DNA of 64,000 nt, from the NCBI GenBank assembly GCA_024281375.1, contig JAJSAD010000096.1, positions 32,867-96,866 on the forward strand, read 5' to 3'. A model generated the notes under the pieces. It was given only the letters and a program-made list of their open reading frames with translations. It had not been told where the DNA came from and ran no database searches. This document shows positions 2,403 through 62,814 of this stretch, piece by piece (position 1 is the stretch's first letter; each line of letters starts with the position of its first letter). Both the position numbers and the translations under genes were made by a program. The stretch comes from Alphaproteobacteria bacterium. Lineage in GTDB: Bacteria > Pseudomonadota > Alphaproteobacteria > Caedimonadales > UBA9215.

Positions 2403-2432
2403 AAAACCAAGCCCGGTGCCCAGTGTTGAAAA

Positions 2433-2468
2433 TTGATATACCCCCCACTATTGATATACCCCCCACTA
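2433..2468. repeat. perfect 2 x 18-bp tandem repeat TTGATATACCCCCCACTA
   Basis: Read directly: 2433-2450 and 2451-2468 are identical. Lies about 30 nt after the stop of the 1683-2402 ORF. Confidence 0.9.
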
Positions 2469-2479
2469 CCCGTCACTTT

Positions 2480-2700
2480 TTATTTACTTCTTTCCTTCCT
2501 CCTCTTTCTTTTCCTGCCTTTATTTTGCCCATTTTTTGACTAATAGTTATTAATGCTGATAAAAAATGCCTATATGTCAAAAATCGCGCGGGATAAACAG
2601 GAGATTTACGAGAAAAAAAAGGAAGTTTTCTTGGGAAAGGGGAACGAAGGAAGAGCCGGAGGCAGGAGAAACTAAGGTAAGAACCGGAGGCAGGAAGGGT
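2480..2700. repeat. palindromic repeat element, copy 1 (CT-rich arm, conserved ~66-bp core at 2527-2592, AG-rich arm)
   Basis: Core TTTTTGACTAATAGTTATTAATGCTGATAAAAAATGCCTATATGTCAAAAA is ~85% identical to 5311-5378. The left arm (TTCCTTCCTCCTCTTTCTTTTCCTGCC) is roughly complementary to the right arm (GGCAGGAGAAA...GGAGGCAGGAAGGG). Confidence 0.7.
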
Positions 2701-2878
2701 TTATACCTATTCAATTTCGAAGTGTGGGTTTTAAAACAAGGGCTGCCAAAATATTTCATTGGCCGGAGCGTATGTTTTATACGTGAGGAAAACGAAGTCC
2801 CGCCGTTTTGAAAGTCCACAGTTTGAAAGAGGATGGGTATAGATCATACAGCCTTTTTTAAAAAGGGGTGGATAGCGT

Positions 2879-2917
2879 AAAAAAACCCACAGCCTTTTAA
2901 AACTGTGGGACTTTTTT
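2879..2917. terminator. bidirectional Rho-independent terminator downstream of the DEAD-box helicase gene
   Basis: AAAAAAA-CCCACAG-CCTTTTAAAA-CTGTGGG-ACTTTTTT: a 7-bp GC-containing stem flanked by an A-run and a T-run. Sits 24 nt after the helicase stop. Confidence 0.7.
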
Positions 2918-2940
2918 AAATCGATTACAAAAGGCCTTGC

Positions 2941-10480: not shown

Positions 10481-10565
10481 GCGGGCGTGGTGAAATTGGT
10501 AGACACGCTAGATTTAGGTTCTAGTGTCGCAAGACGTGGGGGTTCAAGTCCCTCCGCCCGCACCA
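10481..10565 (+). tRNA. tRNA-Leu (anticodon UAG)
   Basis: Acceptor GCGGGCG pairs with CGCCCGC. Anticodon loop is TT-TAG-GT. It has a long variable arm, T-loop GGTTCAAGTCC, and an encoded CCA. Confidence 0.9.
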
Positions 10566-16965: not shown

Positions 16966-19900
16966 TCATGGCAAAGAAATGCTCTGGCTGAAAAGATTCA
17001 TGTGGCCGCTTTTTCCCCAAAGATCTCGATTTCCTACAATATAAAAGACGCGTTTGGCTCGGGATACGGCAACATTGAGAATATTGACTTGAGTTGTTGC
17101 CCAATTTCGAGCCCCCCCTTGTGCAACATCGGGGGCACCGAGCAAGAAGAAAACGGCTTCAGCCTCTTTGCCTTGAAACGTATGCACTGTACCGACATGG
17201 GTTTTCGCCCAATCGTAGATAGAAATATTATAGCCCTCAAAGAAATCCTTGTTGCTCATAAGGAGTGATCTCATGCCTTGTGCCACAGCTTTAAAGGGAG
17301 AAATGATAAACAAATCTGGCATATGACCAAGCCCTTGGGCCAGGGTCATTAATCTATTTAGAATCTCCACGCCTTCTTCTGGGCACCATTTATCTTCTGC
17401 GGTTCCCGCCACATGAATCCAGTGAGAGTCCCCCAAAATACCTTTAATAGGGGACGCTTTTTCAGCGGTAGCATAAACCATAAGATTGCTGTAGGCGAGA
17501 GCATTAGAAATTCTAAACATGGGATTTTCACAGCGTCGATGCACCAAAAGCGGGACGCCAATACGAACATCCTCAAAGTCTCTTTTAATAACCGTTCCGT
17601 ATGAATTAGCTTTATCAGAAAGGGTTTGAATGGACGCTTGAGGGGCCGTGAATCTTTTGGGATCCACGCCGTGATGGGTGGCTAAGCTGTCAAGTAAGGG
17701 TTTGGGAAGGGAGGTCACAGGAGGGATTTGTAGGGGATCTCCAACGGAGATAACGCATTTTGCGCGGTAAATAGCGCCAGCAGCAGCTTGCTGCGTACCT
17801 TGTCCTGCTTCATCAATAAGAAGCCAGCCAAAACTTTCTTTTCTCATGCCGCGTAACATGCCTGTAACGGAAGCGAAGGTCGTTGAGATCACAGGAACAA
17901 CGAGAAATAAACTGGCCCATAAATCTGGTAAAAGTCGATCTTGATCTGGGCTTAAGGTTTCACCACCTAAGACTTTCATCATGGAGCCTAAGTTTTTCCC
18001 CAATGGTTTTGCCGCTCCATCAATAAAGGCTTTGTGTACTTTAATGGCAGCAACAAAAACATCGTCGCGTATTCGTTGTTCTTTTTCGGTGAAGTTCGGA
18101 GAAAAGAGTTGTTGTTCTTTGAAAGGGCGCTCCCAAAAATCCTATGTAATGAGGTGGTCTTGCAAGTTTTTATAGGATCTAGATATGATACTTTTGCCTT
18201 GTGCTAAGTCTTTTTTGATCTCAGAAATTTCACCTTCTATGCCGTCATATTGGAACTGTAGCACTTTCATTTTTTTGGTGTTGGTATGGATAATGTCTTT
18301 TAAATTTAAAACTTCTCTTTGTTTCTTGGTGAGAGCAAAGATACATTGGTCATATTCTTCTCCCCAGGGGCTTTTCGTATCGTTGATGAATGCTCTTTTG
18401 AGTTTATAACTTCCAACTTCAAAGAGATTGGGCTTAAGATATTGATACTCTTTCTTTTGCTGTTCTAGGGATTTTAGTTGCATCTCGTCGTGTTCGAGAT
18501 CATTTTTAGTGTTTTTTATCTCTGAGTCTAGGATAGATATTTCACTTTTCATATTTGTGATTAAGGGGAGGGAGTGCTCTAATTCAAGCTCCTTTTCATT
18601 CATCTGGTGAAGGATCTGGCGGAGGTCTTGAATGTTGAAAGTGAGATATTCAGATTGCGATAGAGCAATATTGAAATTACTGCAAGACTCATCCCAATCC
18701 CATTCAAGGTCTTGAGAATTTTCGGGAATATCCTCTTGTTGAATAATAAGGGGGACTCGTTGGAATTTCTCACCTGTCTTTTTGTCTTTGATGGTGGCTA
18801 GCGGAACTTCTTCTCCGCGGACTTCTTTTAAATAAGTGCGAAGACTAGTATCGTCATTCCACCAGAATGTATTGGCAAAAGCGCTCCTATTTTTACTGTT
18901 ACCGAGGGCGACGGCTGAGAGCCCCCATGTTGCGTATTTATCCTCAGCTATGGCATCGCTGATGGTTCGAAAATAGCTTAGCTCATCGGTGAGATCTTCT
19001 GCGATTTGAGAAAGTTGAGGAAGTTCTTTGCTGATATTTTCAACGGCATTATTGTTTGAAGAGGCAACGAGAATTTCATGTCCTTTGAGTTTCTCATCAA
19101 GTTCATAAAAATCCCCAACCTTGGTGAAAGCATCTTCAGGGTATTTAAAGGAGCTTAAAGCTTTGGCACGATCGATGATAACAGAGGCAACAATATCACG
19201 GAGCAATGTTGTTTTTCCTGTTCCAGGAGGGCCGTTAATCGAAAATAGACCGCCCTCTTTTAAGGTTGTCGTTGCAATATTTACAGCCGTTTGTTGAAGG
19301 AGAACAAGGGGGTGACGTCCTGCGCTGGGCCAACGTCCAGCAGGGGTGTTATCAGGACTTAGAGTAGATTCCAATAAGTCATGATCTTTTAATAAATCTT
19401 GTAAGTCTGGTGAGGAAATGTCTCCAATATATTGTTGGAGAGCTTTTCCAGCTTCCTTGTCCTTTAGGGCTGTTTGAATCCGTTGTAAATCACTAAGGTA
19501 AAAACTGTTAAGAATAGGAGCATTTGGCGTTTTAGGCTTCTCATCTTTTTTTGGTTTTCTTTTGTATTGTTTGATAGAAAAGGTAGGCGATAAGCAGTCC
19601 TCTTCGGGAACGTTACAATTTTGAACGAGGAAGTTATAGGCATGATAAATTTTTTCCCAATTGAGGGGGAGCTTTTTTCCATCATCATTTGTCTCAAATA
19701 AGATATCGCGAAGACTCTGCTTGATAAGAGTTGCCGCAGTATTCCAACACCTCAGATGCTCGAGCTTGTTATGCAAAGAGCGACCATACGCCCAAGGAAA
19801 GCTTGACAGTGCAAGATCATTTTGATCATCGATGGGCACGCCCTCTTCATTCACGGTCACAACGGCAGTGGCGGCATAGCCACTATTGGAGATACGTTCT

Positions 19901-20640
19901 TGGGTATCGTCCTTATAAAGTTCAAGGAGTTTAGTGCTGGCATTTTTAACATCAATTGCGCCCAGATACACTTGATAGTATACGGTCATGCCCTCAGGAA
20001 TTTTTTGTGTTTTTCCCCACGGGAGGCGCGTTCCTGTTAAAGAAGCAACTTTCTTGGGGTCATTGCAAATATCCGCTGGTTTTTTATAGGAATTTGGGGA
20101 AAGAACTTCCGTTGTAATCCACGAATCAAGAACGTCAGAAGGTTTATTATCAAGGGAACGGTCTTTTCTAAAGGAAGGTTTTTTCTTGAGTTTATTTTTA
20201 AGAACTTCATCCCAGTCAATAAGACTTTCTGAGAGTGAGGGGAGTTTCTGATTTATTTGTTTTGGGAGGATATTTGCTCGATGGGCAACATTATTCTCAT
20301 TTTGAGGATGCCGAATAAGTTTTTCAATATGAGCGTCACTAAGCCCAGTTACTTCTTTGATACTGTCAACGGATAGGTTTGTTACTGAGATGTTTTCTAG
20401 AATATCATTGGCATAATCTGCGCCTGATACAAGGTAGTCGGCAAAGCAAAGCAGGATTGTATCTTCGCTGGTTGTCGCCCCTTTTTTGTGCTGGCCATCG
20501 TGCACAAATTTCCAGGTGCCATCTGTCTTATAGATTGTTGCGGAGATTTTAGAATTGTAATGATTACCATTGGGGCGCACCTCCCATTTACTGGATATTT
20601 CTTCGATTTCTCTAAGAATGGCTAGCGATGCGTCTTTCAT
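16966..20640 (-). pseudogene. Upf1/DNA2-like superfamily-1 helicase (~1,223 sense codons) interrupted by one in-frame TAG at 18142-18144
   Basis: Track ORFs 18142-20640 and 16966-18003 share a frame, and the 46 codons between them have no stop. Walker A GPPGTGKTT is in the upstream piece. LLIDEAGQ, VGDPLQIPPV, TVHTFQGKEAEAV and VAVSRAKR are in the downstream piece. Confidence 0.8.
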
Positions 20641-45360: not shown

Positions 45361-45451
45361 GATTTTTTTAAAAGGTAAGTAATATGATCTGTGAAAAGAA
45401 ATTATTGAAATGTTTATAAGGCGCGCAGATACGTTGCCGGTGAACGGGCTT

Positions 45452-46775: not shown

Positions 46776-47059
46776 ATCATTAACTCATCTCTCGTTTATA
46801 TTTTTATTGTACCCACAAATGTACCCACTGTCAATAGTTTTTTTGAGGGAAAAAATACATAGAGGAGGAATGAAAACATTTTTTTAGTAAGAGTATTTTC
46901 TTTCCCTATTGACGCTTCCTGTGATGCTTTGCCATTTTTCTTCTTCCTGAAAACAAAAAAATGTAAAATTCCAAAGGTCCAAAAAAGTTTTTCAAAAACT
47001 TGATAGGCGCGTTTACATGTTGCCTTCAGAACAGTGAAATTGCTCCGTCGCAAGCAGCG

Positions 47060-49260
47060 GTGTGACACGAAGTTGTTATGTAGAATGTTTAAGGGATATA
47101 ATCGTGGAAGACTGATTCCATGAATAGTGTACCCCAAGAACCGACTTTTTCGCAAGGGTGTCCCTATCCAGATGTGCAAAGAGAGTAATTTTTTTTGCAA
47201 AGCTCTGGTGACAATGTAGCCGCAGGAAGTCCTGTAGGATTTGATCGTGAGAAAGAATCTGAAACTGCCAGTATCAGGTGGTGAGGAACTAGGGAAGCAG
47301 AATAGGGAGAACATATGTGAACTTTTTAAAATGTCGTGAGCGACACAGAGTGAAAGATACTGTAACACTCTCGCCAAAAGGCATTGCAATTGGGAATGAA
47401 GGTGTCGTTGCTACTTCATCGCGAACCATAAAATTGCCGGCATAAAGAAAGCTCCTAAGTTCTGCGCTAAGTCTACATAATAGAACGTGGAAAACCTGTA
47501 AACCTCCTAGCAATAGGAAAGCAAACCGTAAGGTTTTGCCCATGGGTTTGCAGGCACAGGATGTGATAAAAAGCAAATGTCTTTCTGTAATGGAGAGAAT
47601 ACAGGGCTATCCCTGGCGTGAAAACGAGCCCACTTATCACTGGTCTTTTGTCGTAAGAGACTTTGAAGAATCGTGTAAGGAATAAACGCAAATGACAATA
47701 GCTTTGCCTATTGGTGCCTCTTCCAATCAACTGCTCCTAAATTCCTGGGATGCTATCCCCTGGAAAAAGGCGGACAAAGTGATTAAACGACTTCAGATGC
47801 GTATTGCGAAGGCCACAAGAGAACAGAAGATGGAAAAGGTTAACGCCTTACAACGTCTTCTTACCTCCTCTTTTTACGGTAAATGCTTAGCCGTTAAAAG
47901 AGTTGTTCAAAGTAAAGGAGGTAAAACCCCTGGGGTAGATGGGGTTACTTGGCAAACATCTAAACAAAGGATGCAAGCTGTTGGTGCGCTAAAATGGCGG
48001 GGGTATACTTCTCAACCGTTGAAGCGCATTTATATCCCCAAGAAAGATGGACGAAAACGCCCTCTTTCAATTCCCACTCTCTACGATCGTGCTCAACAAG
48101 CTTTGTGGAAATTAGCCTTAGAGCCTGTCGCTGAGGAGCGGGCAGATCTGAATGCGTATGGGTTTCGTCCTATGCGCTCCACAGCTGATGCTATACAACA
48201 ATGTCATATAGCTTTGTCCCAAAAGACATCAGCAACATGGATTCTGGAAGGGGATATAGAGGCTTGTTTTGATAGGATTGACCATAATTGGCTAATGGAA
48301 AATATACCCATGGATAAAACCATCCTGGGAAAGTTTCTAAAAGCTGGATTTATGGAAAGTCAGCAGGTTTTTCCGACAACAATGGGAACACCTCAAGGTG
48401 GCGTGATCTCTCCCACTCTTGCTCTTATGGCTCTAAGTGGTTTGGAAAGATATATTAGAACTCAATTCAAATCACGGTCATCTAGCAAGGTTAATATTGT
48501 TACCTACTACGATGATTTCATCATTACGGCAGATACAAAAGAGATCCTCCAGCAAAAGATTTTTCCAATGGTTGTCGATTTTCTTAGGGAACGAGGATTA
48601 ACGTTATCCCCGAGTAAAACGAGAATTACCAATATCAAAGAAGGCTTTGATTTCTTAGGCCATACGATTAAACGGTATGACTGTGGGAAGGTGCTTATAA
48701 CACCTTCTAAAGACAATACTGAGACATTGATCAAAAACCTGAGAGAAACAGTGAAATCCATGCGAAGCGTGACGGCGGAAAGGCTCATTTACACTTTAAA
48801 TCCTAAGATACGGGGTTGGTGTAATTATTTCCGTCATATAGCGTCCAGCAGAACGTTTACCAAGGTCGATTATCACGTCTATCAAATGTTGGCCCGATGG
48901 GCCTGTCGAAGACATCCAAACAAATCTAAAGCTTGGTCTTTAAGAAAATACTTTAAAAGCCAGGGAAATAGAAATTGGGTGTTTAGTGATACAGTGACTC
49001 ACAAAGAGAAGATGAAAACGATCTCGCTTTTTGCGGCTCACAAGGTATCTATTCGACGTCGCATTAAAGTTAAAGGAGCGGCGCATCCCTTTGACCATGA
49101 GTTCAAAGACTATTTTGAACTTAGGAAAAAGAGTTTGAACATATTATGGTCGGGCGAGAAAAACTCGCCTTAACAAAGGCTTGAGCCGTATGATGGGAAA
49201 CTATCACGTACGGTTCTTAAGGGACGGGGGAACAGTAATGTTCCCCTGTTACCTGACTAC
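47060..49260 (+). mobile_element. group II intron (ribozyme plus intron-encoded protein); boundaries approximate
   Basis: 5' GTGTGACACG at 47060. Domain V GAGCCGTATGATGGGAAACTATCACGTACGGTTC at 49183-49216. Domain VI helix at 49221-49253 with bulged A at 49251. The RT ORF sits in domain IV. Confidence 0.8.
47692..49173 (+). CDS. group II intron reverse transcriptase/maturase (no endonuclease domain evident)
   Basis: RIYIPKKDGRKRPLSIPTLYDRAQQ (RT1-2), TPQGGVISP, YYDDFII (YxDD) and maturase X motif RGWCNYFRH. 493 aa, intact. Confidence 0.95.
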   Translation: MTIALPIGASSNQLLLNSWDAIPWKKADKVIKRLQMRIAKATREQKMEKVNALQRLLTSSFYGKCLAVKRVVQSKGGKTPGVDGVTWQTSKQRMQAVGALKWRGYTSQPLKRIYIPKKDGRKRPLSIPTLYDRAQQALWKLALEPVAEERADLNAYGFRPMRSTADAIQQCHIALSQKTSATWILEGDIEACFDRIDHNWLMENIPMDKTILGKFLKAGFMESQQVFPTTMGTPQGGVISPTLALMALSGLERYIRTQFKSRSSSKVNIVTYYDDFIITADTKEILQQKIFPMVVDFLRERGLTLSPSKTRITNIKEGFDFLGHTIKRYDCGKVLITPSKDNTETLIKNLRETVKSMRSVTAERLIYTLNPKIRGWCNYFRHIASSRTFTKVDYHVYQMLARWACRRHPNKSKAWSLRKYFKSQGNRNWVFSDTVTHKEKMKTISLFAAHKVSIRRRIKVKGAAHPFDHEFKDYFELRKKSLNILWSGEKNSP

Positions 49261-49446
49261 CCTCACTCTCAATAAAACATTCAGAAAGTATTGCGAAATA
49301 GCCTAAGCGAAGCGGTTTTGCGGCGATTTTGTTCTTTTTCATTTTGAGACTCCGCAGTGTACGTTTGGTACATGAAGGAAGGATCAAAATAAAAAAGGGC
49401 AAAAAGAGCCCAAAAGAGGCATTTCCCAGACTTTACACGGAGTTCA

Positions 49447-50596
49447 ATGGCCCTAGCCCACACCAAGACTTAAAGTATTTTCACGTTCTTCGAGGAGAAC
49501 AGTTGGTTCCCTTGCTTATCGAGCAGGGGTGTGTTTGCTGGATAAAGAAACGGGCGAGATTCACGATTACAGCAAGAAGCAAGTTCAGTCCGTCGATTTG
49601 CTACTTCCCGAAGATGCGCCACAGTGGGCGAAGGATTTACAAAAGAAGATTTCTGAGAACCGGACTGCTGGCGTTCAAGAGGTTTCCGATATTGCTGAGG
49701 CTGCTGAAAAGCGCAAAGACTCCCAAGTGTATCGTGAATATGAGTTCTCTTTGCACCGCGAATTAACCGATGCTCAGAACAAAGAATTGGCCTTAAAATT
49801 CCTTCAAGAACAGTTCTGTTCTAGGGGGATGATGGTCAAAGCAAACTTCCACTTTGATGTTGATAAAGAGGGAAACAGAAAACCCCATTGCCATGCTGTG
49901 ATGCTGACAAGGCGCCTTGAAGAAAATGGCCTTTCCAAGATGAAAGATCGGAGCTGGAACCACAAAGATTTGGCCACAGAATGGCGCAAAGAATTTTGCA
50001 ATTATTCCAATGCTGCCTTTAAAAAACTTGGCCTTGATATCGTGCTGGATCCACGTACCTATGCAGAGCAAGGCATTAACATTGAACCCCAAACAAAGCT
50101 GAGTCGAAATACCCTTGAAATCGAACAACGTCATGGGGCAAATCCTAAAAATATTCTCTCGACACCAGTAACGACTCGCGGTCAGGATTTCCAACAAATT
50201 ACCTTACGCAATCTTTATAAAATCATCGATAACCCCAAGATCGTTTTGGAAGATATCTCGAAGCAACAAATGACCTTTATGTGGGGAGATGTTGTTAAGT
50301 TTTTGGCGCGTCATATCGATGATCAAGCCTTGTTTGAACGTGTGTGTTTAAAGCTTCAAAACTCTGAGGAACTCGTTTGCGTCAAAGCAGGAGGCTCTTT
50401 ATCCCAACGGGTCTTTACAACGAAAACACGTCTTGAGGAAGAAACACGTTTTGTTGAGGGCGTACGTTCTTTAAAAGATAGTCAGACACATGCTGTTGAT
50501 ACTGAGGTGGCTCAGTCTGTGATTGAGTCTACGAACCACAAGCCTTTCAAGAGCGATATAAGGATCCTGAGGCTTCTTTCTCCGATGATCAGGTAA
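49447..50596 (+). pseudogene. traA: Ti-type TraA (MOBQ) relaxase domain, with a frameshift at ~49462 and terminated by an in-frame TAA
   Basis: ATG 49447 gives MALAH, then the frame shifts by 1 nt into ...RLKVFSRSSRRTVGSLAYRAG (catalytic Tyr motif). HFDVDKEGNRKPHCHAVM is the His triad. The TAA at 50594-50596 is in frame with the next ORF. Confidence 0.8.
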
Positions 50597-50611
50597 GATC
50601 AAATCCACCAT

Positions 50612-52909
50612 ATGGCGTCATCAAATCAGTTGAGCTTTATCGAGGGCTATGCGGGGGCTGGTAAGACCACCGTGATGCGCGGCATGAAAGAAATCTGGGA
50701 AGCCAGTGGTTTTAAAGTTTATGGGCTTGCTCCCACAGGGCGCGCAACGGATAACCTTGCGGACTGCGGCATTCGTTCACAAACTGTTGATCGCTTTTTA
50801 CGATCCTATGAACATGGCCAAAACCAGCTCAGCTCTAAGAGCGTTCTGGTGCTCGATGAAGCGGGTATGGTGAGCAGTAAGAATTTCACTGCGCTCATTG
50901 GTGTGACGAAAGAACTAGGTGTTAAGCTGGTAGCTTGTGGAGATCGAGGGCAACTTTCTCCCGTCGAAGCTGGTGCGCCTTTTAGGCTTTCTATTAATGA
51001 AATCGGGAAAGCGGATTTAACCACAGTTTTACGTCAAAAAGTTCCTTGGCAATCACAAGCAACGTCTCTCTTTGGAGAAGGCAAAACAGAGGATGCTTTG
51101 CGCCTTTATGGAGATCATGGCCGCATTAAGTTTGTTGAAGAATCACTGCCTCTGAATGTTGTTGAGCAATACAATCTCTCTCGTCGTATTACGGGAAATA
51201 TCGCCCATGAAATGAATCAAGATATTGAGCGGGCGAAAGACAATAAAGTTCTTGGGGGCGAAGAGCTTACCTTCAAAAAACACCACGATTACGCTTTATT
51301 CATAGACTGGAAAAACACACGGGATGCCTGCACAAAAGAAATCTTTCTGAACATAAGAACCTATCAACCCGTTATGAAGGAAATGGGTGTTGACGGCGTT
51401 GATTTCTGTAACAAGGTTATTAATCACCCTCATAAGATCACCCAAGACTACGACAAATATCGTCTTGCCAAGGCGCTCGGCATCGATTGGCGCATTGACG
51501 TTACCCACACCTGTGATCCGCGTCTTGAAACCAAAAAAGAGCTCATGAGCGATTGGTTTAAATCCACCCAAGATCATCCCGATGCCAAACAAGCCATGAT
51601 GGCCTATAGCAACAAGGATGTGCTTCACCTCAATATGATGGCCCGTCAGCTTAAAAAAGAATCCGGCGAGATCGGAAAAGAGGAATTTACTTATATCATC
51701 GAGCGTAATGCCAATGGTGCGTTAGGGGAAGAACTAGGAAATCGCAAAACCCTTCTTGAAGAACGAACCTTTAGCAAAGGGGATCAAATTGTCTTCACGG
51801 AAAACAACACAGGACTTGGGGTAAGGAATGGGACTTTGGGCCAAATTACGTCCCTTGATAAATCAAAAATCACAGCCACCTTTAAAGAGGAGGGCCTTGA
51901 GAAAGAGGTTTCCTTCGCTCCGAATCTGTACAAACGATTTGATAATGGTTGGGCTCTGACCATTCACAAAAACCAAGGGGCTACCGTTGATCTGTCCTTT
52001 ACTCTAGCCAGCTTTGAGCAATTTAGAAACCTAAGCTATGTGAGTATGACGCGCCATGAAAAGGACGCTAAACTCTACGGATCTGATTTTGATTTCTATC
52101 GTGAGGAGAAAATCTATGATCGTTTGGGGCGCCATCAAGATAAGCTGTCTTCCCTAGATTATTTGAGTCCTGAGGATTCTGAAAAACTTCTCAGATCTGA
52201 ACGGGAGCAGCTCAACAAGACCTTTGAAGCCGTCGGGCGTAAGCTTGACGCAGTGGGTTATGTGGGAGGCAGAGCATGGGGGCAGGTTTGCGATAAATTC
52301 CTGGGAAGAACCCCAGAGAGCAACCTCATTCGTGTTGATTATGAAGCCCTTCATTACCATAAGACAGAAGCCACCAGAGCTGATGAAGTTCTTCGAGGCG
52401 TTAAGTATGACGACTCTATTTTGCCTCGTGATGTTATTCCCAAGGTTACTGCTGAGGCTTCTGATGCGAAAGAAACACAGAAAAAACCTGACCCCAAAGT
52501 CGAAGAGGCTGCCCCTGTTACACCATCTAAAGTAGCCCCTAAAGAAGCTCATCAAGCTCAAGCGAAACAAGTTCCCCCTACACCCCCAGTGGAGACGGTT
52601 GTTCATACGGCGCCTGAGGTGAAGGAAAAGCAAGAAACAGCAGGCCTTCAAAAAGAACAAACCATTGTTATAGAGGCCCCTCGTAAACAACAACGCCCCC
52701 GTAAACAACAAAAACAACAACGTCCCCGCAAACAGAAACTACCCACGCAAGACTTCCAAAAGTTTGTAAGGGATGTCGAAAGTTCCATTCGTATTGAAGA
52801 CCTAGCAAAGGATATTTTGGGAGCTCAGAATCTTAATACGAGCTTGTCTAATTCTTCCCAATTAAGGTTTGGTCGCAATGGAAGTTTGTCTGTTGAGTTG
52901 AAAGGGTAA
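50612..52909 (+). CDS. traA: TraA RecD-like helicase portion (possibly non-functional fragment)
   Basis: EGYAGAGKTTVM Walker A, VLVLDEAGMV Walker B, and WALTIHKNQGATVD / SYVSMTRHEKD C-terminal motifs. Same frame as the ORFs on both sides. Confidence 0.8.
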   Translation: MASSNQLSFIEGYAGAGKTTVMRGMKEIWEASGFKVYGLAPTGRATDNLADCGIRSQTVDRFLRSYEHGQNQLSSKSVLVLDEAGMVSSKNFTALIGVTKELGVKLVACGDRGQLSPVEAGAPFRLSINEIGKADLTTVLRQKVPWQSQATSLFGEGKTEDALRLYGDHGRIKFVEESLPLNVVEQYNLSRRITGNIAHEMNQDIERAKDNKVLGGEELTFKKHHDYALFIDWKNTRDACTKEIFLNIRTYQPVMKEMGVDGVDFCNKVINHPHKITQDYDKYRLAKALGIDWRIDVTHTCDPRLETKKELMSDWFKSTQDHPDAKQAMMAYSNKDVLHLNMMARQLKKESGEIGKEEFTYIIERNANGALGEELGNRKTLLEERTFSKGDQIVFTENNTGLGVRNGTLGQITSLDKSKITATFKEEGLEKEVSFAPNLYKRFDNGWALTIHKNQGATVDLSFTLASFEQFRNLSYVSMTRHEKDAKLYGSDFDFYREEKIYDRLGRHQDKLSSLDYLSPEDSEKLLRSEREQLNKTFEAVGRKLDAVGYVGGRAWGQVCDKFLGRTPESNLIRVDYEALHYHKTEATRADEVLRGVKYDDSILPRDVIPKVTAEASDAKETQKKPDPKVEEAAPVTPSKVAPKEAHQAQAKQVPPTPPVETVVHTAPEVKEKQETAGLQKEQTIVIEAPRKQQRPRKQQKQQRPRKQKLPTQDFQKFVRDVESSIRIEDLAKDILGAQNLNTSLSNSSQLRFGRNGSLSVELKG

Positions 52910-54529
52910 TATGCTGGTTCTTGGAAAAATTGGGAAAGCAATGAAAAAGGCTGGCCATTAAAACTTATTCAAAATGAAAAGGGGTTAGATTTTAATGGGT
53001 CTCTTGCATTTGCCTCAAGCTATTGCCGTGGGAGTATTTCTAACGATATCGATGCGTTCTTAAAGGGCAAAAAATTGAGGGAAATTTCTCCAGCAGAACG
53101 TCAAGCACAAAACGCGGAATATAAAGCTGAACGCCTTAAGCAAGCGGCAGAAACAAAGCGCATTAACGATGCAAAGGTTCACGACGTCCAAACACTCGTT
53201 TCAAAGGCACAGCCTATTGCAGGCACGCCCGCTGAGACTTATTTGTGCAAAGAACGCGGCATTCAAGGAGACCTTCCAGATTCTTTAAGATATATCCCAC
53301 CGCAAACTCTTTTCTCTTATAAGGGAAATAAGATCCCCATAAAGAGTGGTGCATTACTATCCGTTGCAACAGATCATGATGGTGAGGTTAAAGCGATTCA
53401 ACTAACACAGCTCACAGAAAGTGGGCAAAAGGCTGTTGGCTTTGATGGATCAACATTACCAAAGAAAACCTATGGCGTTCAAAAAGGTTCTTTTGTGGAG
53501 CTTCAAAAAGGAAGCAATAAAGATCCCATCATTCTAGCGGAAGGTATTGAAACTGCCCTCTCTGTGAAAGAAACGGGTATCAAAGGAACAGTTCTGTGTT
53601 CCCTTGGCACGTCTAATATTGGTAACCTTGATGTGAAAAACCGAGAGGTTATTATTGCAGCCGATTGGGATGGCAGCTTTGAGGTACAGTCCTGGAAAAC
53701 AACGGAAAAAGCCAAAGGGAATCTTGAAGCTAAAGGAAATAGTGTTTCCATTGTTCTGCCCGTTGAAAATACAAAATTAACGGATCGGAAAGTAGATTTT
53801 AACGATCTTTTAAAACAAGAAGGTGTAGACTCAGTCATAGATCGTGTATCAGAGCAAGCCCCTGGGGTTTTTGGCCACGTGTCATCCTCCAGGGACTTTC
53901 AACTTGAGGATTCCCATGAAAGACAAGAAGATCATAACGTTTCCGAAAAGCAACCTGCTGACCCTGGGCTTAACCCATCAACAGATCACGCCGAAAACAC
54001 GGGGCAGCTTTTGGCGCAAATGGATAAGAAAGCGGACGAAAAAACTTTTCAAGACGCGGCCTTAAAAGATAATATTCTTGCGTATTTCGAGCAAGAACTT
54101 GCAAAGCCAGAAAATAGAAACTGGAACAAAGACCACGTCCTAGAAGACGTTCAACGCGATCCTCTTGATGCCCTCAATTGGTGGAAAAAAGAATGTGGCG
54201 GTGGTGCTTTTGATCCTAGTAAACCCCTTAGTGAGCAGCCTTCAAGTTTACAGGTTGATATCACTCTGACTGACACGTCGAAAACCTCTGAAGGTGATTT
54301 CGCGAAAGACTTCGCTAAAGAGCTTAAGAACCTGGATGACAGTATCGAACGCGTCGCTAATAAACAGGACTACCAAGGCGCCCTCGCCAACTACACCCAA
54401 CAACGCGAAGACCTCCTAAAAGGCCTTGATGACACAAAAATTCAAGACCTCAAATCCCAGGAGCCAGACCTTGCCCACCGCGTCGAAGAACATCAAAACA
54501 GCAAGAAAATAACCGAGGATCGGGCTTAG
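52910..54529 (+). CDS. Toprim/primase-like module, in frame with the TraA helicase ORF across the TAA at 52907-52909
   Basis: 55 open codons link the stop to the track ORF (YAGSWKNWESNEKGWPLKLIQNEKGLDFNGSLAFA...). Toprim signatures ILAEGIETALSV and IIAADWDG are present. Confidence 0.7.
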   Translation, partial: YAGSWKNWESNEKGWPLKLIQNEKGLDFNGSLAFASSYCRGSISNDIDAFLKGKKLREISPAERQAQNAEYKAERLKQAAETKRINDAKVHDVQTLVSKAQPIAGTPAETYLCKERGIQGDLPDSLRYIPPQTLFSYKGNKIPIKSGALLSVATDHDGEVKAIQLTQLTESGQKAVGFDGSTLPKKTYGVQKGSFVELQKGSNKDPIILAEGIETALSVKETGIKGTVLCSLGTSNIGNLDVKNREVIIAADWDGSFEVQSWKTTEKAKGNLEAKGNSVSIVLPVENTKLTDRKVDFNDLLKQEGVDSVIDRVSEQAPGVFGHVSSSRDFQLEDSHERQEDHNVSEKQPADPGLNPSTDHAENTGQLLAQMDKKADEKTFQDAALKDNILAYFEQELAKPENRNWNKDHVLEDVQRDPLDALNWWKKECGGGAFDPSKPLSEQPSSLQVDITLTDTSKTSEGDFAKDFAKELKNLDDSIERVANKQDYQGALANYTQQREDLLKGLDDTKIQDLKSQEPDLAHRVEEHQNSKKITEDRA

Positions 54530-54558
54530 GAATTTAAGTCTAGTAACCTGTTCCTCTT

Positions 54559-55962
54559 TTACGAATATAACTCTTTCCTATTTTCCAAATATTTCTTCAA
54601 AAAGAAATGGGCTCTTAACGTAGGGTCTACTTTTTCAGAATTAAATTGAAGATCATGTTCATCTACCTCACTAGTATCTACACCAGAGTTCATTTTTTCA
54701 ATATCGCTGTAAGTAAGGCCAAGTTTCTTCATTAAGCGTTCCAGATAGAGAAAAGTGTTCTGGTAAGACCTAGGGTTATCAAAAGTAAAATCTCTATTCA
54801 GTAATAAAAGAGCTCCTATCAATTCCCTTGTCCCTAATTTTTCAGTGCGCCATATTTTATAAAAAAGCAAATCAGATAAACGCTGACCAAAATATGGGTT
54901 GTATGAGACTTCATTTCTCTTAGTGGTCCAATTATTAGTTAGTAAGTATTTTCCAAGTGCTCTTTGCACATCATCTGAAAAACCAAAGGATCGATAGTTT
55001 GATAATAAATATGACTGTGTTTCATGAAAGTTATGCCTCCCTGCCCTCATAGAATGAATTGGCTCTCCTCTCCTATTGTCACCGCCACTTCCCCAAACTG
55101 CAAAAACAGAATCAGGAATCATTGATGATATATGATCGATATATGAAATACTGGAATGGGTGAGTATACCTGTTCCCTCCAAAGACACGCCAGGAGGATA
55201 TAAAGCAGCATGTTGAAACACACTATGGTGATCATCGACAGAGTTAATTTGATGAGGTTTTCCTGATTCCCCCCTTGTTAAGAGGGCAACGGGGTCGTTA
55301 TCAAAATAAAAGCGTGTATGGGCAGATCGACAAAACCTAAGATTTAACACTTTACATAATTCTGCTCCTAAAATGGGAGGGGCTCCAAGGGTCAATAGAG
55401 AGCAAAATCCCTCAGGAAATTTGTGAGGGTTGTGATCATGCATAGCAATCAAATCTAAAGCAGCTAAATTTGTAACAGCTCCTCCCAAACTGTGCCCAGA
55501 TAAAACAAGGAATTGATCTTCATCAAGGTGATCAAAATGTTCAACGGGATCCAAAAACTCGTAATAATCAAAAATACCTTTATGAACAACACTTTCAGGA
55601 AAATTAGGAAAGCACACTTTGGTTGAAGCTCTGACGGCTGTCAAATCTGCAACAGCATGACCATAACTATCCGTCCCCTTAAATGAAATGACTTTTAAGG
55701 GGCCATTGTTGGCTTCAATGCCATATTGATAACCGTCATGGTTTCGTAAACTCACAATATCCCAACCAGCCTCTTCTAAGCCAGAAGTATATTTGCTCTC
55801 CTCTATGCCATAAGCTACATGGCACAGTTGCGTCATCTCTTTAACGTCTTGGTGGTCGTAAGTGTTTAATAGGTTACTTATCTCTCTGCTTTCAGTTGAA
55901 GCTAATAATGTATTGCTAACAAAGCAAAGAGTTATAGCTACAAGGTGTTTGAATTTCATCAT
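54559..55962 (-). CDS. secreted class-3 lipase-family alpha/beta hydrolase
   Basis: Signal peptide MMKFKHLVAITLCFVSNTLLAST and nucleophile elbow LSGHSLGGAV. Confidence 0.7.
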   Translation of the reverse strand: MMKFKHLVAITLCFVSNTLLASTESREISNLLNTYDHQDVKEMTQLCHVAYGIEESKYTSGLEEAGWDIVSLRNHDGYQYGIEANNGPLKVISFKGTDSYGHAVADLTAVRASTKVCFPNFPESVVHKGIFDYYEFLDPVEHFDHLDEDQFLVLSGHSLGGAVTNLAALDLIAMHDHNPHKFPEGFCSLLTLGAPPILGAELCKVLNLRFCRSAHTRFYFDNDPVALLTRGESGKPHQINSVDDHHSVFQHAALYPPGVSLEGTGILTHSSISYIDHISSMIPDSVFAVWGSGGDNRRGEPIHSMRAGRHNFHETQSYLLSNYRSFGFSDDVQRALGKYLLTNNWTTKRNEVSYNPYFGQRLSDLLFYKIWRTEKLGTRELIGALLLLNRDFTFDNPRSYQNTFLYLERLMKKLGLTYSDIEKMNSGVDTSEVDEHDLQFNSEKVDPTLRAHFFLKKYLENRKELYS

Positions 55963-59188: not shown

Positions 59189-60391
59189 TTAGTTTTTTAG
59201 ATCAAATGAGGGATGAAGGGATTTGCGCTCGTGATAGTGCATCTTTAATTTTGAGATGGGGAATTTCCCAGGGAGCTTGAGGTAACAGGTGAGGTCTGGC
59301 AGTAGGGCCACTTCCGTTGGGAGCACAAGGCGCCGTCTGCTCTTTTGCTTATTTAGGGAAATACCATCACGCATTTGGTGTGCTCCATAAGAAAGACTTT
59401 CTTTGGCTTCCTCTATTTCTTCCTCCCCCAGCCATTTTGAAATTTGCTCACAGGCTTGGGATTCTTCGCTCCTAAAAAAGAACTTCGTGTTAAACAGGTT
59501 GAGAATTGTTTTAGAGCCATTGTGGCCGTAAATTTCGTCAAACTGGGACATGCTCTGAAGACCCGCAAACAGGCAGGCCCCATATTTGCGCCCTTTGGAG
59601 AGGAGGGCCTGAAGAGACTGTAACTTCTGAATGGCTGGGAGCTCATCCATGATAAACCAAACCCGCCTCGTTTGTGATTCACTCTGTGACATGAGGAGTG
59701 TGGCCGTGGAATTAAACACAGCGGCTATGAGGGGGTTCAACGTATGAAGCATATCCTCATTAGCCGTCACGAAAATCCAGTTTTCTTTGGTCTCGTCCCT
59801 GATCCAATCTGAAATAGAAAACCCCTTATCACCCCTTCCTAGATGTTTTAAAAACTGAACACTGCTGCTAAGAGTTGACCTGAAACTTAAGGTTGTTCGC
59901 TCACCTGCTGGATCCGCAAAAGGATAGGCATCGGTTCCCCAGAAAAAAGCTCCAAACTCTTTTAAGGAGGATTTAATCAAAATTCGGTGAAGTTCTTTGG
60001 GTGAAATATCCCGCTGTTGTGCTTTTTGAAGCCCGACGGAAAAGAGCTTCGCTGATCCGTTTTGCCACAGAGGATCTGAATGTTCTCCGTTCTTGGGCAC
60101 AATAGATTTTGCAAGATGATCAAACTGATATTCATGGGAACATTCATGGACGATGTCCCAATTTGACGAACGTTCATCAAAGGGATTGATAATAATATCG
60201 CCCCGATCAGGGTTGTAATATTTTGAAATAATATCTCCTGTGGTATCGATCACGAGGGCGCGTTGTGTTGCCTTGGCTATTTGAGGCAGAAGATCATTAT
60301 AGAGATTTGTTTTACCAGAACCGGTGGTTCCAACGGCGAGGATATGTTTTGTCTCAGAGTCTTTAATAAGGGGGAGTTTTTCAATGGTCAA
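59189..60391 (-). pseudogene. traD: F-type TraD / type IV coupling protein, N-terminally truncated
   Basis: VGTTGSGKT Walker A lies 20 aa from the start, and WFIMDELP is the Walker B. No TM region. The frame closes 16 codons upstream. The TTG start overlaps the TGA of the traG fragment. Confidence 0.7.
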
Positions 60392-61293
60392 ATGGGATGC
60401 CTTTTGATGGGGTTGATTGTTTTTTTCTCTGCATGATCAATTTTGTTTTGCACAATATCTCGCCCTGTTTTGTTAATGGTAGGAACATCTGATAGGAATC
60501 TTTGGATTTCTCCCTTATTCAACACATGATCGATATTGCCAACCCTTGCACGCAATATTTCTTCTTTCCCCTTCATAAAACCAGTCTTCAGGCCATCAAC
60601 TTCTTGCCCTCCCTTGTTTAAGAACGGTACAATATCAGCCTTAGACAACCCTGTTTGTTTAGATACATAATTAAGGAAGGGATCATTTTCATTTGCCGTA
60701 CTTCCCACATGGTTTTGTTGCGCAATAGACCTTGAAGCCACTGCTTCATTAAAGAAGTTCTGATTGCCCATGGAGACATTGCCATCGGCAGCTTCTCCAG
60801 AAAACTTACCCGAAAGGCCTTGAAGGCCTGAGGTTAATCCGCCAACAATTGTGGACATCACATAGGGGGAACCACTCACAACACCCCATGCTAAGACGGG
60901 CACCATGAGTTGCATTCCTGCTACCCAGGAGCCTACAGACCAAGCTGCATCTGAACGCCCCGATATTGTGGCGATTGTGAAACCTTCAATTCCTTGCAAA
61001 GCATCTTCGGAAGATTTCTTAAGCCAAAACAAAGAAAGGGAATTAAGCATTGACGATAACACGGGCCAAAGCTGGAAACTGAATATCAGTTTTACAAATA
61101 ACCAAAATTTAGTGATCCCCCCTGGCATAAAATAAAACCCAACAATCACAACAAAAAGCATGCATAACAAACCGATCATGGTGGCTTGAAGAAGAGGCAT
61201 AGTTACTGAGGACGTGAAGGCGCTCATCATGCCGGTCATACCTTGAGTTTCAAGGGCCCTTGCAGCATTCATGGAAACAAGTTCTGGGTGCAA
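60388..61293 (-). pseudogene. traG: F-type TraG (TraG_N-like) internal fragment
   Basis: 301 aa with several TM helices (LLCMLFVVIVGFYF, FSFQLWPVLSSML, MQLMVPVLAWGV), against ~900 aa for full-length TraG. Position between traN and traD matches F-type order. Confidence 0.5.
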
Positions 61294-61315
61294 ACGTGGG
61301 TATAAAGGGTATCCA

Positions 61316-61582
61316 TTAAATAGCTCCTTCCAGATCGTAGTTAGCCCGCATCTCGTCTTCCTTTGAACGAATGAGCTTATCGATCATCCAGATTTCACGA
61401 CCATCCAGGGTTGCCATTTTTTGTTGAAGGCGTGTTCTGGCTAGCTCTAGACGTTTCTTAAACTCTTGAGTGACGGTGGTATCAAATTGAACGGACTCTA
61501 AAACAGAAACGGCTTGTAAAACTTCTGCCGCAGCTTCCTCAAATTGCTTTAAGAGGATCGTCTTCCGTGAACCGGAAATCAT
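61316..61582 (-). CDS. hypothetical coiled-coil ORF, uncertain
   Basis: 88-aa ORF overlapping the end of the traN fragment in another frame. No family recognised. Confidence 0.2.
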   Translation of the reverse strand: MISGSRKTILLKQFEEAAAEVLQAVSVLESVQFDTTVTQEFKKRLELARTRLQQKMATLDGREIWMIDKLIRSKEDEMRANYDLEGAI

Positions 61583-61868
61583 GTTCTAGGCATTCCCGTT
61601 GACTATTAATGACCGCTGAGCCTGTTTTGTTTTCAGGATCATGGATCATGCCTGTGGCGGCATCCCCCATTTTATGAAAGTTGTCTCGGTAATCTCTTTC
61701 TGGAACATTTTGCCCTTTATAAAAGGGAACGTCGTCAGTGTTTAAGGACTCAGGCCCTTGAATTATATTCCCGCCAAAACTTTTACCATCGGCATAAGAA
61801 AGTTTGTCATTTGCGAGGGAAGGGAGAGGAAAAGATAAAACAATAATAAGCGCTGCAAACTGATTCAT
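61539..61868 (-). pseudogene. traN: F-type TraN N-terminal fragment (109 aa of ~600)
   Basis: Signal peptide, then SYADGKSFGGNIIQGPESLNTDDVPFYKG, resembling the start of F TraN as I recall it. The Cys-rich body is absent. Confidence 0.45.
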
Positions 61869-62557
61869 CCTTGTGCATCCCTTCTCTTTTGAAGCAGGGC
61901 TTTTGCGGGCTCTACCAACTCCCCTTCTATAGCAAATAATTCAAGGGCAGACCTCACAGAGACATTACCCGTGACCTTGTCATAGGGGCCTTGAATGTCA
62001 CCGTCTTTGATTTCCGTTAACACAAAGGTCGGGATGCGTTTAACGTCAAATCGTTCAAATAAGGTTGGGTCAATATCAATGGGAATGCTAAGCTCTCTCA
62101 TGCGCTTTTGTGTTTCTTTGAAAGAGTTATTAACGAGCCCCTGGATCACAAGGTTAGCACCCAGATCTTTGGCTTGTTGGGAAAGGGTCTTGAGGGTTTT
62201 ATCTGGAAGGGAAAGGCTCACAAGAATATAGAGCCCACTATCTCCTTGATATCGTGCTTTTGGAATATCTGATCCCATCTTTGCTGTACGACAGGTTTTG
62301 CCATATTCTTTAGGTTGAAGAACCTCATTTCTTTTTAAAATAGGCTCCTTTTTTGTGTCATCGAATCCAAAGAAAGACGGATACTTTTGATTCTTTGTGC
62401 TTTCGATAAACCGTCGAGCTTCACCTATAGAAGCATCCCGTTGGGGAACAGACTCGCGCGCGATTTCTTGGGCCATACGCGTATAGTCTGTAGCTTGAAC
62501 AGGTAAAAAATTGAAAATCAGTCCAACAAAAACCCTTGACGTAAACTTGTTAAACAT
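61865..62557 (-). CDS. trbC: F-type pilus assembly protein TrbC
   Basis: LYILVSLSLPDKTLKTLSQQAKDLGANLVIQGLVNNSFKET...IDIDPTLFERFDVKRIPTFVL parallels F TrbC. The ATG at 62557 is preferred over the track's longer ORF. Confidence 0.75.
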   Translation of the reverse strand: MFNKFTSRVFVGLIFNFLPVQATDYTRMAQEIARESVPQRDASIGEARRFIESTKNQKYPSFFGFDDTKKEPILKRNEVLQPKEYGKTCRTAKMGSDIPKARYQGDSGLYILVSLSLPDKTLKTLSQQAKDLGANLVIQGLVNNSFKETQKRMRELSIPIDIDPTLFERFDVKRIPTFVLTEIKDGDIQGPYDKVTGNVSVRSALELFAIEGELVEPAKALLQKRRDAQG

Positions 62558-62589
62558 GTTATGCTTGTTATATAAAATGGAGATTAGAT

Positions 62590-62814
62590 GTGACAACCCT
62601 TGGTATCCGCATTCCCGATGAGATGCAAAAAACACTGGATGGCATTTGTTCTTTAAGCAAAAGGTCAAAGACGTCCATCGTGAAAGAAATCCTCGAAGAC
62701 CACCTTCAAGATGTACACGACTATTATATGACCCTAGAAGCTTTTGATCGTCACCAAAAATCTGGAGGAAAAACAACCTCCTTAAAGGATATAAAAGAAG
62801 AAAATGGTCTCTAA
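62590..62814 (+). CDS. ribbon-helix-helix antitoxin (RelB/ParD-like), copy 1
   Basis: 74 aa: LGIRIPDEMQKTLDGICSLSKRSKTSIVKEILEDHL. Overlaps the downstream relE-like start by 11 nt. Confidence 0.7.
   Translation: MTTLGIRIPDEMQKTLDGICSLSKRSKTSIVKEILEDHLQDVHDYYMTLEAFDRHQKSGGKTTSLKDIKEENGL

Follow-up and report, generated by a model that had tools for sequence, protein, structure and literature searches.

A probable recent traA pseudogene encoding a relaxase-helicase-primase fusion, and its intron-interrupted oriT-like region, in an alphaproteobacterial genome

The 64,000 nt of alphaproteobacterial contig JAJSAD010000096.1 considered here (the window) carry on the plus strand, at 49447-54537, the locus of a conjugative transfer gene, traA. 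This locus is most probably (at about 85%) a recently inactivated pseudogene, which encoded as a single chain a Ti-type MOBQ-class relaxase, a superfamily 1B (SF1B) helicase and a C-terminal DUF7146/Toprim primase. The ancestral length is ~1,695 codons, full-length fusion proteins are matched at E = 0, and the copy in the nearest genome relative, termed L004, is intact. A preliminary description, made from the sequence without database searches, saw here a relaxase-helicase-primase mega-protein caught in early decay. Single-chain homologues, the intact L004 gene and an unrelaxed ratio of nonsynonymous to synonymous substitution (dN/dS) bear this out. The lesions of traA, an oriT-like region (origin of transfer) that is mutated and separated from the gene by an intron, and truncated transfer genes together indicate that the locus is probably the remnant of a conjugative element integrated in an uncultured alphaproteobacterium's chromosome, of the Rickettsiales amplified genetic element (RAGE) kind.

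Identity and domain composition of the traA locus

Three consecutive open reading frames (ORFs) cover the locus, at 49529-50596, 50612-52909 and 53075-54529. They had been described as lying in one frame, and all three do share the coordinate remainder 2 modulo 3. Translation from the ATG at 49447, one base off this frame, gives MALAHTKT*. On the source contig, 99,095 bp in length, the gene caller reports three proteins ('AAA family ATPase / hypothetical'). The annotation that fits is one traA pseudogene ending at 54537, not three unrelated proteins.

The bridged translation has hundreds of full-length homologues at E = 0, and chance is therefore ruled out as the source of the fusion. More than 40 of the homologues listed are single chains of ~1,500-1,950 aa, from metagenome-assembled genomes (MAGs) labelled Holosporales, Simkaniaceae and Alphaproteobacteria. 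Their domain order, MobA_MobL (PF03389), AAA_30 (PF13604), DUF7146 (PF23639) and Toprim_3 (PF13362), is that of the window. The same search also yields many homologues of ~1,100 aa that are entirely without the primase.

Pfam matches on the three pieces are colinear with these homologues and place the locus among relaxase-helicase-Toprim fusions encoded in one gene, the Rickettsia TraA_Ti-I type. The first piece belongs to PF03389 MobA_MobL (6e-36; 124.8 bits vs a cut-off of 26.7). AAA_30 (7.6e-49), AAA_19 and the RecD-like SH3 domain SH3_13 are matched by the second piece, and DUF7146 (1e-14) and Toprim_3 (3e-13) by the third. NCBIfam names the first two pieces Ti-type TraA (TraA_Ti), with RecD2 also matched on the helicase. 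Structural matches in the PDB are NES (4ht4, 6e-27) and MobA (2ns6) for the relaxase, and TraI and RecD2 for the helicase. Once the lesions described below are repaired, the protein scores 562.4 bits (E = 1.6e-168) against TIGR02768, the TraA_Ti profile, aligned from profile position 1; the equivalog cut-off of 590.45 bits is narrowly missed. With a score just under the threshold, the protein is therefore labelled Ti-type or TraA_Ti-like, a close relative of the TIGR02768 equivalog and not a member of it. Identity to plasmid TraA proteins is ~35%, and near and distant DNA searches of plasmids with the traA region gave no match.

The MOBQ relaxase motifs (an N-terminal Tyr and an HxD...PHxH triad) are both present where they had been pointed out, though no start codon now precedes the Tyr in its frame. 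The catalytic Tyr codon, Y24 of the repaired protein, lies at 49517-49519 within GSLAYRAG and occupies a nearly invariant column of a 14-sequence family alignment (A1). The His-triad motif HFDVDKEGNRKPHCH of the MobA/MobL domain, at 49850-49894, contains H135, H147 and H149, which are invariant in A1. The SF1B (RecD/TraI-like) helicase, together with a low-complexity Pro/Lys/Gln linker, extends over 50612-52906 and has its Walker A motif at 50645-50671 and a DEAG motif at 50843-50872. The DUF7146 and Toprim_3 primase module follows at 53180-53827. Its Toprim motifs are EGIETALS (53540-53563) and AADWDGS (53657-53677), and A1 shows no variation in the Toprim E/G and DxD columns.

Lesions, their age and alternatives to decay

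Lesions were mapped from a three-way nucleotide alignment in which every non-triplet difference was listed, and the two relatives read through at all positions covered. One relative is L004 (JAACSN010000010.1, Alphaproteobacteria bacterium CG_2015-10_43_21), used with L001, an ENA metagenome contig; both are ~85% identical to the window in nucleotide sequence. The other, L002/L003 (Holosporales bacterium UBA9215), is ~82% identical. The L004 gene is uninterrupted over 1,699 codons, and that of L003 is unbroken across the 1,568 codons present, its contig beginning inside the gene. One frameshift and two in-frame ochre codons had been proposed for this gene. The alignment replaces this with five lesions, four small indels and one nonsense codon, which deprive the locus of the uninterrupted frame of a functional Ti-type TraA.

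The first lesion is an extra A at 49464-49465 (AA vs A in relatives) that shifts the frame after codon 6. L001 reads CACACC-AGACTT here, i.e. MALAHTRLKVF, as does a protein relative (P0002), and the ATG at 49447, earlier put forward as a true start lying 1 nt out of frame, is confirmed as such. No ATG, GTG or TTG occurs from the frame-2 stop at 49454 up to the Tyr codon at 49517, and the first usable start of the largest relaxase ORF is the GTG at 49529, downstream of the catalytic Tyr. With no start codon before the Tyr in the remaining frame, this lesion alone would be enough to abolish nicking. To judge from the reading frames, a relaxase with its catalytic Tyr could not be made from the window sequence, whatever happens downstream.

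The second and third lesions lie within 50537-50601 and cancel each other. They are a +2 insertion of CA at ~50537-8 (AAC--CAC in relatives) and a +1 insertion of A at ~50599-50601. The 64 nt between them are out of frame and include the TAA at 50594-50596; read in frame 1, this stretch gives AFQERYKDPEASFSDDQVR and matches the relatives. The preliminary description had remarked that the ~60 nt before 50594 read more TraA-like in another frame ('AFQERYKDPEASFSDDQVRS') and had suspected compensating indels, which are thus found. The stop that it placed at 50594 is present but did not arise by nonsense mutation. This TAA sits in the wrong frame between the insertions and is a by-product of the two.

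The sole true nonsense change is the fourth lesion, a C to T change at 52907-52909 that gives TAA vs CAA (Gln) in both relatives; a further protein relative (P0001) has ...SVELKGQHAGFWKNWESNEKG at this point. As had been described, the stop interrupts the frame ahead of the Toprim domain. The fifth lesion, a 1-nt deletion at 54497-54498 (relatives CAAAAGCAG, window CAAAACAG), had been missed, and the reading frame was taken to end at 54529. The deletion shifts the last ~12 codons, and the conserved ...NRGSGLGI* (stop 54535-54537) becomes ...NSKKITEDRA* (stop 54527-54529). The restored C-terminus agrees codon by codon with L003 (...NRGAGLGI*) and L004 (...EIGLGL*), and a G-L-x-x C-terminus is also present in more distant homologues. 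Removal of four bases, addition of one and reversion of the T to C produce a 1,695-codon ORF from 49447 to 54537, in keeping with the ~1,690 codons first estimated.

L001 is 99.98% identical to L004. Over 5.3 kb it has a single 1-nt deletion, at a site equivalent to window coordinate ~52132 (GGGGCGCCAC to GGGGCG-CAC), which splits the gene into 974 + 770 aa. The deletion represents a variant present in the population or else an error of assembly. The case illustrates how easily a 5-kb traA gene is reported in pieces.

The repaired protein retains every invariant column of A1 (150+). Kept catalytic residues include H135/H147/H149, G399-K405 of Walker A, and E1364/G1365 and D1405/D1407 of Toprim. 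At columns invariant in the other sequences, the window departs in 4 of 190, and intact proteins in 0-22. By the Nei-Gojobori method, dN/dS is 0.120 against L004 and 0.133 against L003, and 0.126 between L004 and L003; for the relaxase and helicase parts it is ~0.06 in all three comparisons. A ratio like that of the intact pair, with the motifs kept, indicates recent hits. Inactivation is recent relative to a dS of ~0.8, relaxed constraint is not detectable, and traA is the part of the element that was lost most recently. The locus offers a snapshot of decay in which the selective signature and catalytic motifs are intact despite five disabling hits, a parallel to RAGE decay in Rickettsiales.

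Several points weigh against inactivation. The lesions are seen at the level of the assembly, and an unrelaxed dN/dS is just as compatible with a gene that is still whole in the cell. The helicase ORF has its own ATG and has kept all its motifs, and a helicase/primase split has a precedent in Orientia (PMC10732058). The view is also confined to the window; other traA copies, or an intact type IV secretion system (T4SS), elsewhere in the genome would lie outside it.

The first of these points raises the question of whether all five lesions arose in sequencing or assembly, with traA still intact in the organism. Four of the five are 1-2-nt indels, as long-read errors typically are, dN/dS cannot be told apart from the value for intact relatives, and the L001 deletion indicates that such singletons occur in assemblies or populations. 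However, the indel contexts are short (A to AA, CA to CACA, AA to AAA, G lost), with no long homopolymers, and one lesion is a substitution. In addition, no break is apparent in ~40 other long ORFs, which make up ~45 kb of housekeeping and sugar-cluster sequence and in which ~35 breaks would be expected at the indel rate of traA. The only other damaged genes in the window are those of the mobile element, and the oriT-like region too is mutated and interrupted. Confinement of the damage to element genes therefore favours real decay, and error is a very unlikely explanation.

A different possibility is that the relaxase is broken, but that the helicase ORF (50612-52909), the primase ORF (53075-54529) or both are expressed separately and retain their function. 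Expression as separate modules had been suggested from the outset. For the relaxase it fails, as no start precedes the Tyr, and for the other two pieces it is unlikely. The ATG of the second ORF lies just upstream of Walker A and the full helicase motifs follow, and the third ORF keeps both DUF7146 and Toprim. The many primase-less homologues are compatible with separate function, as are the Orientia RAGEs, where the Toprim part (TraI) is encoded apart from TraA_Ti (PMC10732058), and two loci (L036 and L066) with a Toprim-like match located away from traA. On the other hand, there is no Shine-Dalgarno-like sequence at the usual distance upstream of ATG 50612 or TTG 53075, and no promoter-like site between the intron and traA. 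The third ORF is without the conserved ~55 residues that precede it in relatives, and the partner T4SS and oriT-like region are degraded. The genome comparison set consists of 80 related loci (909 kb), and the break points of the window are seen in none of these; nor do any have relaxase, helicase and primase as three genes with the same boundaries.

That the full-length protein is still made by programmed recoding (frameshifting, stop readthrough or reassignment) is scarcely credible. A +1 shift at the TAA after MALAHTKT would yield a protein of ancestral length, and the TAA at 52907 aligns with Gln. Against this, four separate frameshift events plus one readthrough would be required, and the sites are not conserved, the closest relatives being plainly in-frame wherever covered. 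Neither slippery heptamers nor a prfB-like CUU-UGA context are present. Among genuine stops in the window TAA is the most frequent, ending 29 of 48 long ORFs, and the other in-frame stop of the window is a TAG aligned with Ala. Stop-codon reassignment and programmed frameshifting were rejected on these grounds: the lesions are absent from relatives and TAA is a normal stop. A recent pseudogene thus remains the preferred reading.

The oriT-like region and its group II intron

Of the 70 loci whose flank is long enough, 56 have a conserved block upstream of traA. It consists, in order, of the core AAGCGCGCTTATACRTT, a hairpin (H1), GCGCTT, a second hairpin (H2) and a loose trailing motif, which is GCAGACC in many loci. 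In outline, the block is AAGCGCGCTTATAC-H1-GCGCTT-H2. H1 has 39 different 5′ arms, with a mean perfect stem of 5.9 bp vs 3.5 bp in shuffles. H2 is a 12-nt palindromic hairpin, N4-GC-NN-GC-N4′. It is paired in 98.4% of cells and displays 54 double-sided changes, and its covariation score was reached by none of 500 shuffles.

The same core (GCGCGCTTATACGT), with a hairpin and GCGCTT, occurs on a MOBQ-typed plasmid of Gluconobacter oxydans, upstream of an annotated TraA_Ti and with divergent 'TraD' genes on its other side. Ti plasmids have an IncQ-like oriT immediately upstream of traA (PMC4700958). As core and hairpin occupy the equivalent place in the Gluconobacter plasmid, the block is read as the putative oriT of this traA family. 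By analogy with Ti and RSF1010, the nick would fall within the core and on the strand opposite to traA, and the candidate nic is predicted on the bottom strand at GTATAAGCG|CGC. This placement relies partly on what is presumed to be the Ti oriT sequence. The Ti nic is located on the complementary strand (PMC4700958). One oriT sub-lineage, that of loci L015 and L066, has an unusually short H1 (GTC-GTGC-GAC, then AAAAG), which by chance mimics a group II intron 5′ end, GTGCGAC; the stretch of L067 compared with it is 2148-2166.

The preliminary description would have sought an oriT at 49261-49446, next to traA. The oriT-like motif lies instead at 47005-47059 (plus strand), upstream of a group II intron. 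This 5′ part, termed copy B, comprises the core AGGCGCG-TTTACATGTTGC, H1, and H2 (GTCGCAAGCAGCG). It is the single match to the pattern in the window, with 0 expected by chance, and aligns with 55 related oriT-like regions. All three of its parts are altered. One C is lost from GCGCGC in the core; H1 has two substitutions in the 3′ arm, which reduce the perfect stem to 4 bp; and H2 contains a single mismatch and also a T-G, where relatives are unpaired in 4 of 255 cells. A truncated core, copy A (AAGGCGCGCAGATACGTTGC), is present at 45408-45437 (plus strand) and is 27/30 identical to the L004 core (blastn E = 2.6e-5), which it resembles more than copy B does. The two copies suggest a rearrangement or two former elements. 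Copy A is situated 1.6 kb upstream of the intron-bearing copy B, and genes for a GNAT and a polyketide-cyclase-like protein lie between. A Ti-type DNA transfer and replication (Dtr) module has its oriT adjoining traA, with divergent traC/traD; the window has a degenerate motif 2.4 kb from traA. Divergent traC/traD genes are absent from the window: when the small ORFs upstream of L004 traA were used in tblastn, nothing was found in it.

The intron is 2,198 nt long (47060-49257, plus strand), lies on the sense strand of traA and follows directly 3′ of H2. It has the RNA signatures of its class (Rfam group-II-D1D4-7, RF02012, 86 bits; Intron_gpII domain V/VI, RF00029, 66 bits) and begins at 47060 with GTGTG, in agreement with GUGYG. 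An intact intron-encoded protein (IEP) of 493 aa, at 47692-49173 (plus strand), has the Pfam domains RVT_N, RVT_1 and GIIM, and no HNH match in Pfam. The flanks GTCGCAAGCAGCG|...|TACCCTCAC rebuild the empty site of L004, GTCGCAAGCGACG|TACCCTCAC. With domain V/VI RNA, the 5′ end, a reverse transcriptase (RT) and maturase protein and the empty site, the element qualifies as a mobile group II intron. A metagenome scan with its IEP found nothing. Pairing of candidate exon- and intron-binding sites (EBS1 CGTTGCT, 47406; EBS2 GCGAC, 47340) was only weakly significant, had no matching EBS1 in the aligned D1 of the L067 intron, and is not relied on.

The predicted junction of the spliced traA leader is GCAAGCAGCG|TACCCTCAC. 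The 3′ flank TACCCTCAC (49258-49266, plus strand) carries on the L004 oriT-like sequence. Beyond it, and reaching to the final 22 nt of the traA leader, is a foreign stretch of 158 nt (49267-49424, plus strand), where L004 has 4 nt. This stretch matches nothing else in the window and none of the loci retrieved. From 49425 onwards, 22 nt upstream of the traA ATG, the sequence is again homologous to L004. The 158-nt stretch and the second core copy show that a single simple insertion does not account for the history of the locus.

Four RT-bearing group II introns were found in the 80 genome loci. Two of these, in L025 and L067, are flanked by the oriT core on one side and an intact traA on the other, and both are oriented like traA. 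The L025 intron (Caedibacter sp. 38-128, 2583-4505) is of the D1D4-6 class and has no nucleotide similarity to the window intron. It is inserted at GACGCAAGCGTC|GTGCG, the 3′ base of H2, and the paralogue L027 shows this site unoccupied. Copies of the L025 element from metagenomes are represented by L085 and L087. The L067 intron (~2150-4354) is of the same Rfam class as that of the window; its junctions are messy, with oriT sequence partly duplicated on both sides. A clean insertion in L067 at TTATACGTT|GTGCGAC was considered and rejected, as 'GTGCGACAAAAGGCGCTT' is native oriT sequence in the paralogues L015 and L066.

Thus, 3 of ~72 traA loci (window, L025, L067) have an intron between oriT core and traA start, and in the window and L025 introns of unrelated classes are positioned at one and the same hairpin, 0-3 nt from the 3′ base of H2. 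The oriT blocks make up ~0.5% of the sequence searched and hold 3 of 5 introns, well above random placement, though by a post hoc test. A strict metagenome scan for the pattern 'oriT core ... H2 + GTGYG' returned only the L025 element again and two high-GC chance matches, and no new independent case. Perhaps group II introns land preferentially in the oriT hairpin region of these Ti-type traA elements, although this is less likely than not. If such targeting is true, introns would exploit a DNA structure that is single-stranded during conjugation, and could travel along with the element or control its transfer. An oriT nick that primes intron cDNA was considered and set aside: the predicted 3′-OH lies upstream of the intron sites, and simple nick-primed retrohoming does not fit. 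That argument takes nic to be in the core on the bottom strand, an assumption made partly from the presumed Ti oriT.

A known counterpart is Ll.LtrB, found in the relaxase gene ltrB of Lactococcus pRS01. It is likewise a mobile group II intron within a conjugative DNA-processing module, in sense orientation to the relaxase gene. Relaxase and Ll.LtrB interact functionally (PMC4256276, PMC1874635), and the relaxase that hosts this intron stimulates its mobility (PMC4256276). Unlike Ll.LtrB, the window intron lies outside coding sequence, in an oriT-like hairpin region upstream, and its relaxase is dead. Targeting, if true, would provide a counterpart to Ll.LtrB at a different position. A literature search turned up no oriT-hairpin intron site, and the intron-in-oriT pattern is the one lead here that could be new. 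The oriT-like architecture is shared from Acetobacteraceae plasmids to symbiont-like genomes, and repeated group II intron insertion within it constitutes a testable link between retroelements and conjugative origins.

The element remnant, related systems and the rest of the window

By analogy with Ti TraA, RSF1010 MobA and F TraI, the intact ancestor would have bound the upstream oriT and nicked one strand, becoming covalently attached through Tyr24. The helicase would then have unwound the transferred strand, and an F-type coupling protein may have passed the relaxase-DNA complex to the secretion system. Its own primase, carried into the recipient, could have started complementary-strand synthesis there.

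A degraded F-type T4SS remnant is found on the minus strand at 59189-62776 (Pfam, NCBIfam). The TraD_F coupling protein (59189-60391) is without its first ~160 residues; it covers positions 163-561 of the 566 in the TraD_Ftype profile and scores 399 bits vs a cut-off of 521. A TraG fragment of 301 aa (60388-61293), which overlaps TraD_F by 4 nt, corresponds to positions 311-482 of a 922-position profile. TrbC lies at 61865-62776, and the gap between trbC and traG is only ~570 nt; traN, traF and traH would presumably be expected there from the F-type gene order. TrbC, the TraG fragment and the truncated TraD_F are the F-type genes seen up to the window end. No TraD_Ti was found in the window, and no integrase family was matched among the ORFs scanned in it. 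The integrase at a tRNA gene that is typical of a RAGE-like element is likewise not found, the sole tRNA (Leu, 10481-10565) being followed by tig and clpP; these negatives apply to the window, beyond which the contig extends for a further 35 kb.

The protein type of traA is already known, and the gene itself is ordinary. The layout most resembles the RAGEs of Rickettsia bellii and R. buchneri, in which TraA_Ti-I is a single chain of MobA/L relaxase, ATPase/UvrD-type helicase and C-terminal Toprim (PMC4564193, PMC10732058). The C-terminal Toprim primase has been described for R. bellii TraA_Ti (PMC4564193). Rickettsia RAGEs also have an F-type T4SS (traG, traD_F, trbC) and are integrated elements of an intracellular alphaproteobacterium (PMC4564193, PMC10732058). 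The window differs in that its traA is a pseudogene and its host relatives are labelled Holosporales; the likeness is one of layout, not of direct sequence comparison. In Orientia, where decay of such genes in proliferated or dying elements is well documented, more than 50% of the RAGE transfer genes are pseudogenes (PMC10732058). The traA_Ti/traI genes of O. tsutsugamushi show frameshift and truncation decay in degraded F-T4SS elements, with a break between relaxase-helicase and Toprim (PMC10732058). The TraA_Ti/TraI split of Orientia is, however, fixed and recurrent, whereas the breaks of the window are private and absent from its closest relatives.

Agrobacterium Ti TraA (Class I Dtr) shares the N-terminal MOBQ relaxase (MAxAH start, Tyr motif, His triad) and the RecD-like helicase. 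It has no primase, and the window system is F-type, not P-type. RSF1010 MobA is a relaxase-primase fusion whose primase probably travels with the DNA. Its MOBQ relaxase domain (2ns6, matched above) is similarly fused to a primase, but this is RepB′-type and not Toprim, and a helicase is absent.

Directly beyond traA, a class-3 lipase gene (54559-55962, minus strand; 467 aa, with a signal-peptide-like N-terminus) converges on traA and begins 22 nt past the ancestral stop. L004 has other cargo at this position, a helicase and a deaminase. A superfamily-1 helicase pseudogene (AAA_11/AAA_12) lies at 16984-20208 on the minus strand and has an in-frame TAG near 18140; the 1,166-aa gene next after traA in L004 shares 37% identity with it.

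The minus-strand operon at 18-44 kb was considered as a T4SS and rejected, since it is a nonulosonic-acid/polysaccharide cluster and the T4SS remnant lies at 59-63 kb. The sugar/nonulosonic-acid cluster (~24 kb, 20959-44466, minus strand) contains NeuB, UDP-GlcNAc 2-epimerase, DegT aminotransferases and a CMP-transferase-like gene, as well as a glycosyltransferase, sulfatase-like and kinase-like genes and an ABC exporter. It may have been acquired horizontally, with a GC content of 0.32-0.40 vs ~0.43 elsewhere. Unbroken genes of the window include those for iPGM, a DEAD helicase, ETF-QO, Tig, ClpP and UvrA, with Pfam matches that are mostly model-length. For the trigger factor, identity is 77% with a protein labelled 'MAG: Alphaproteobacteria bacterium' and ~42% with one belonging to a Holosporales-labelled MAG.

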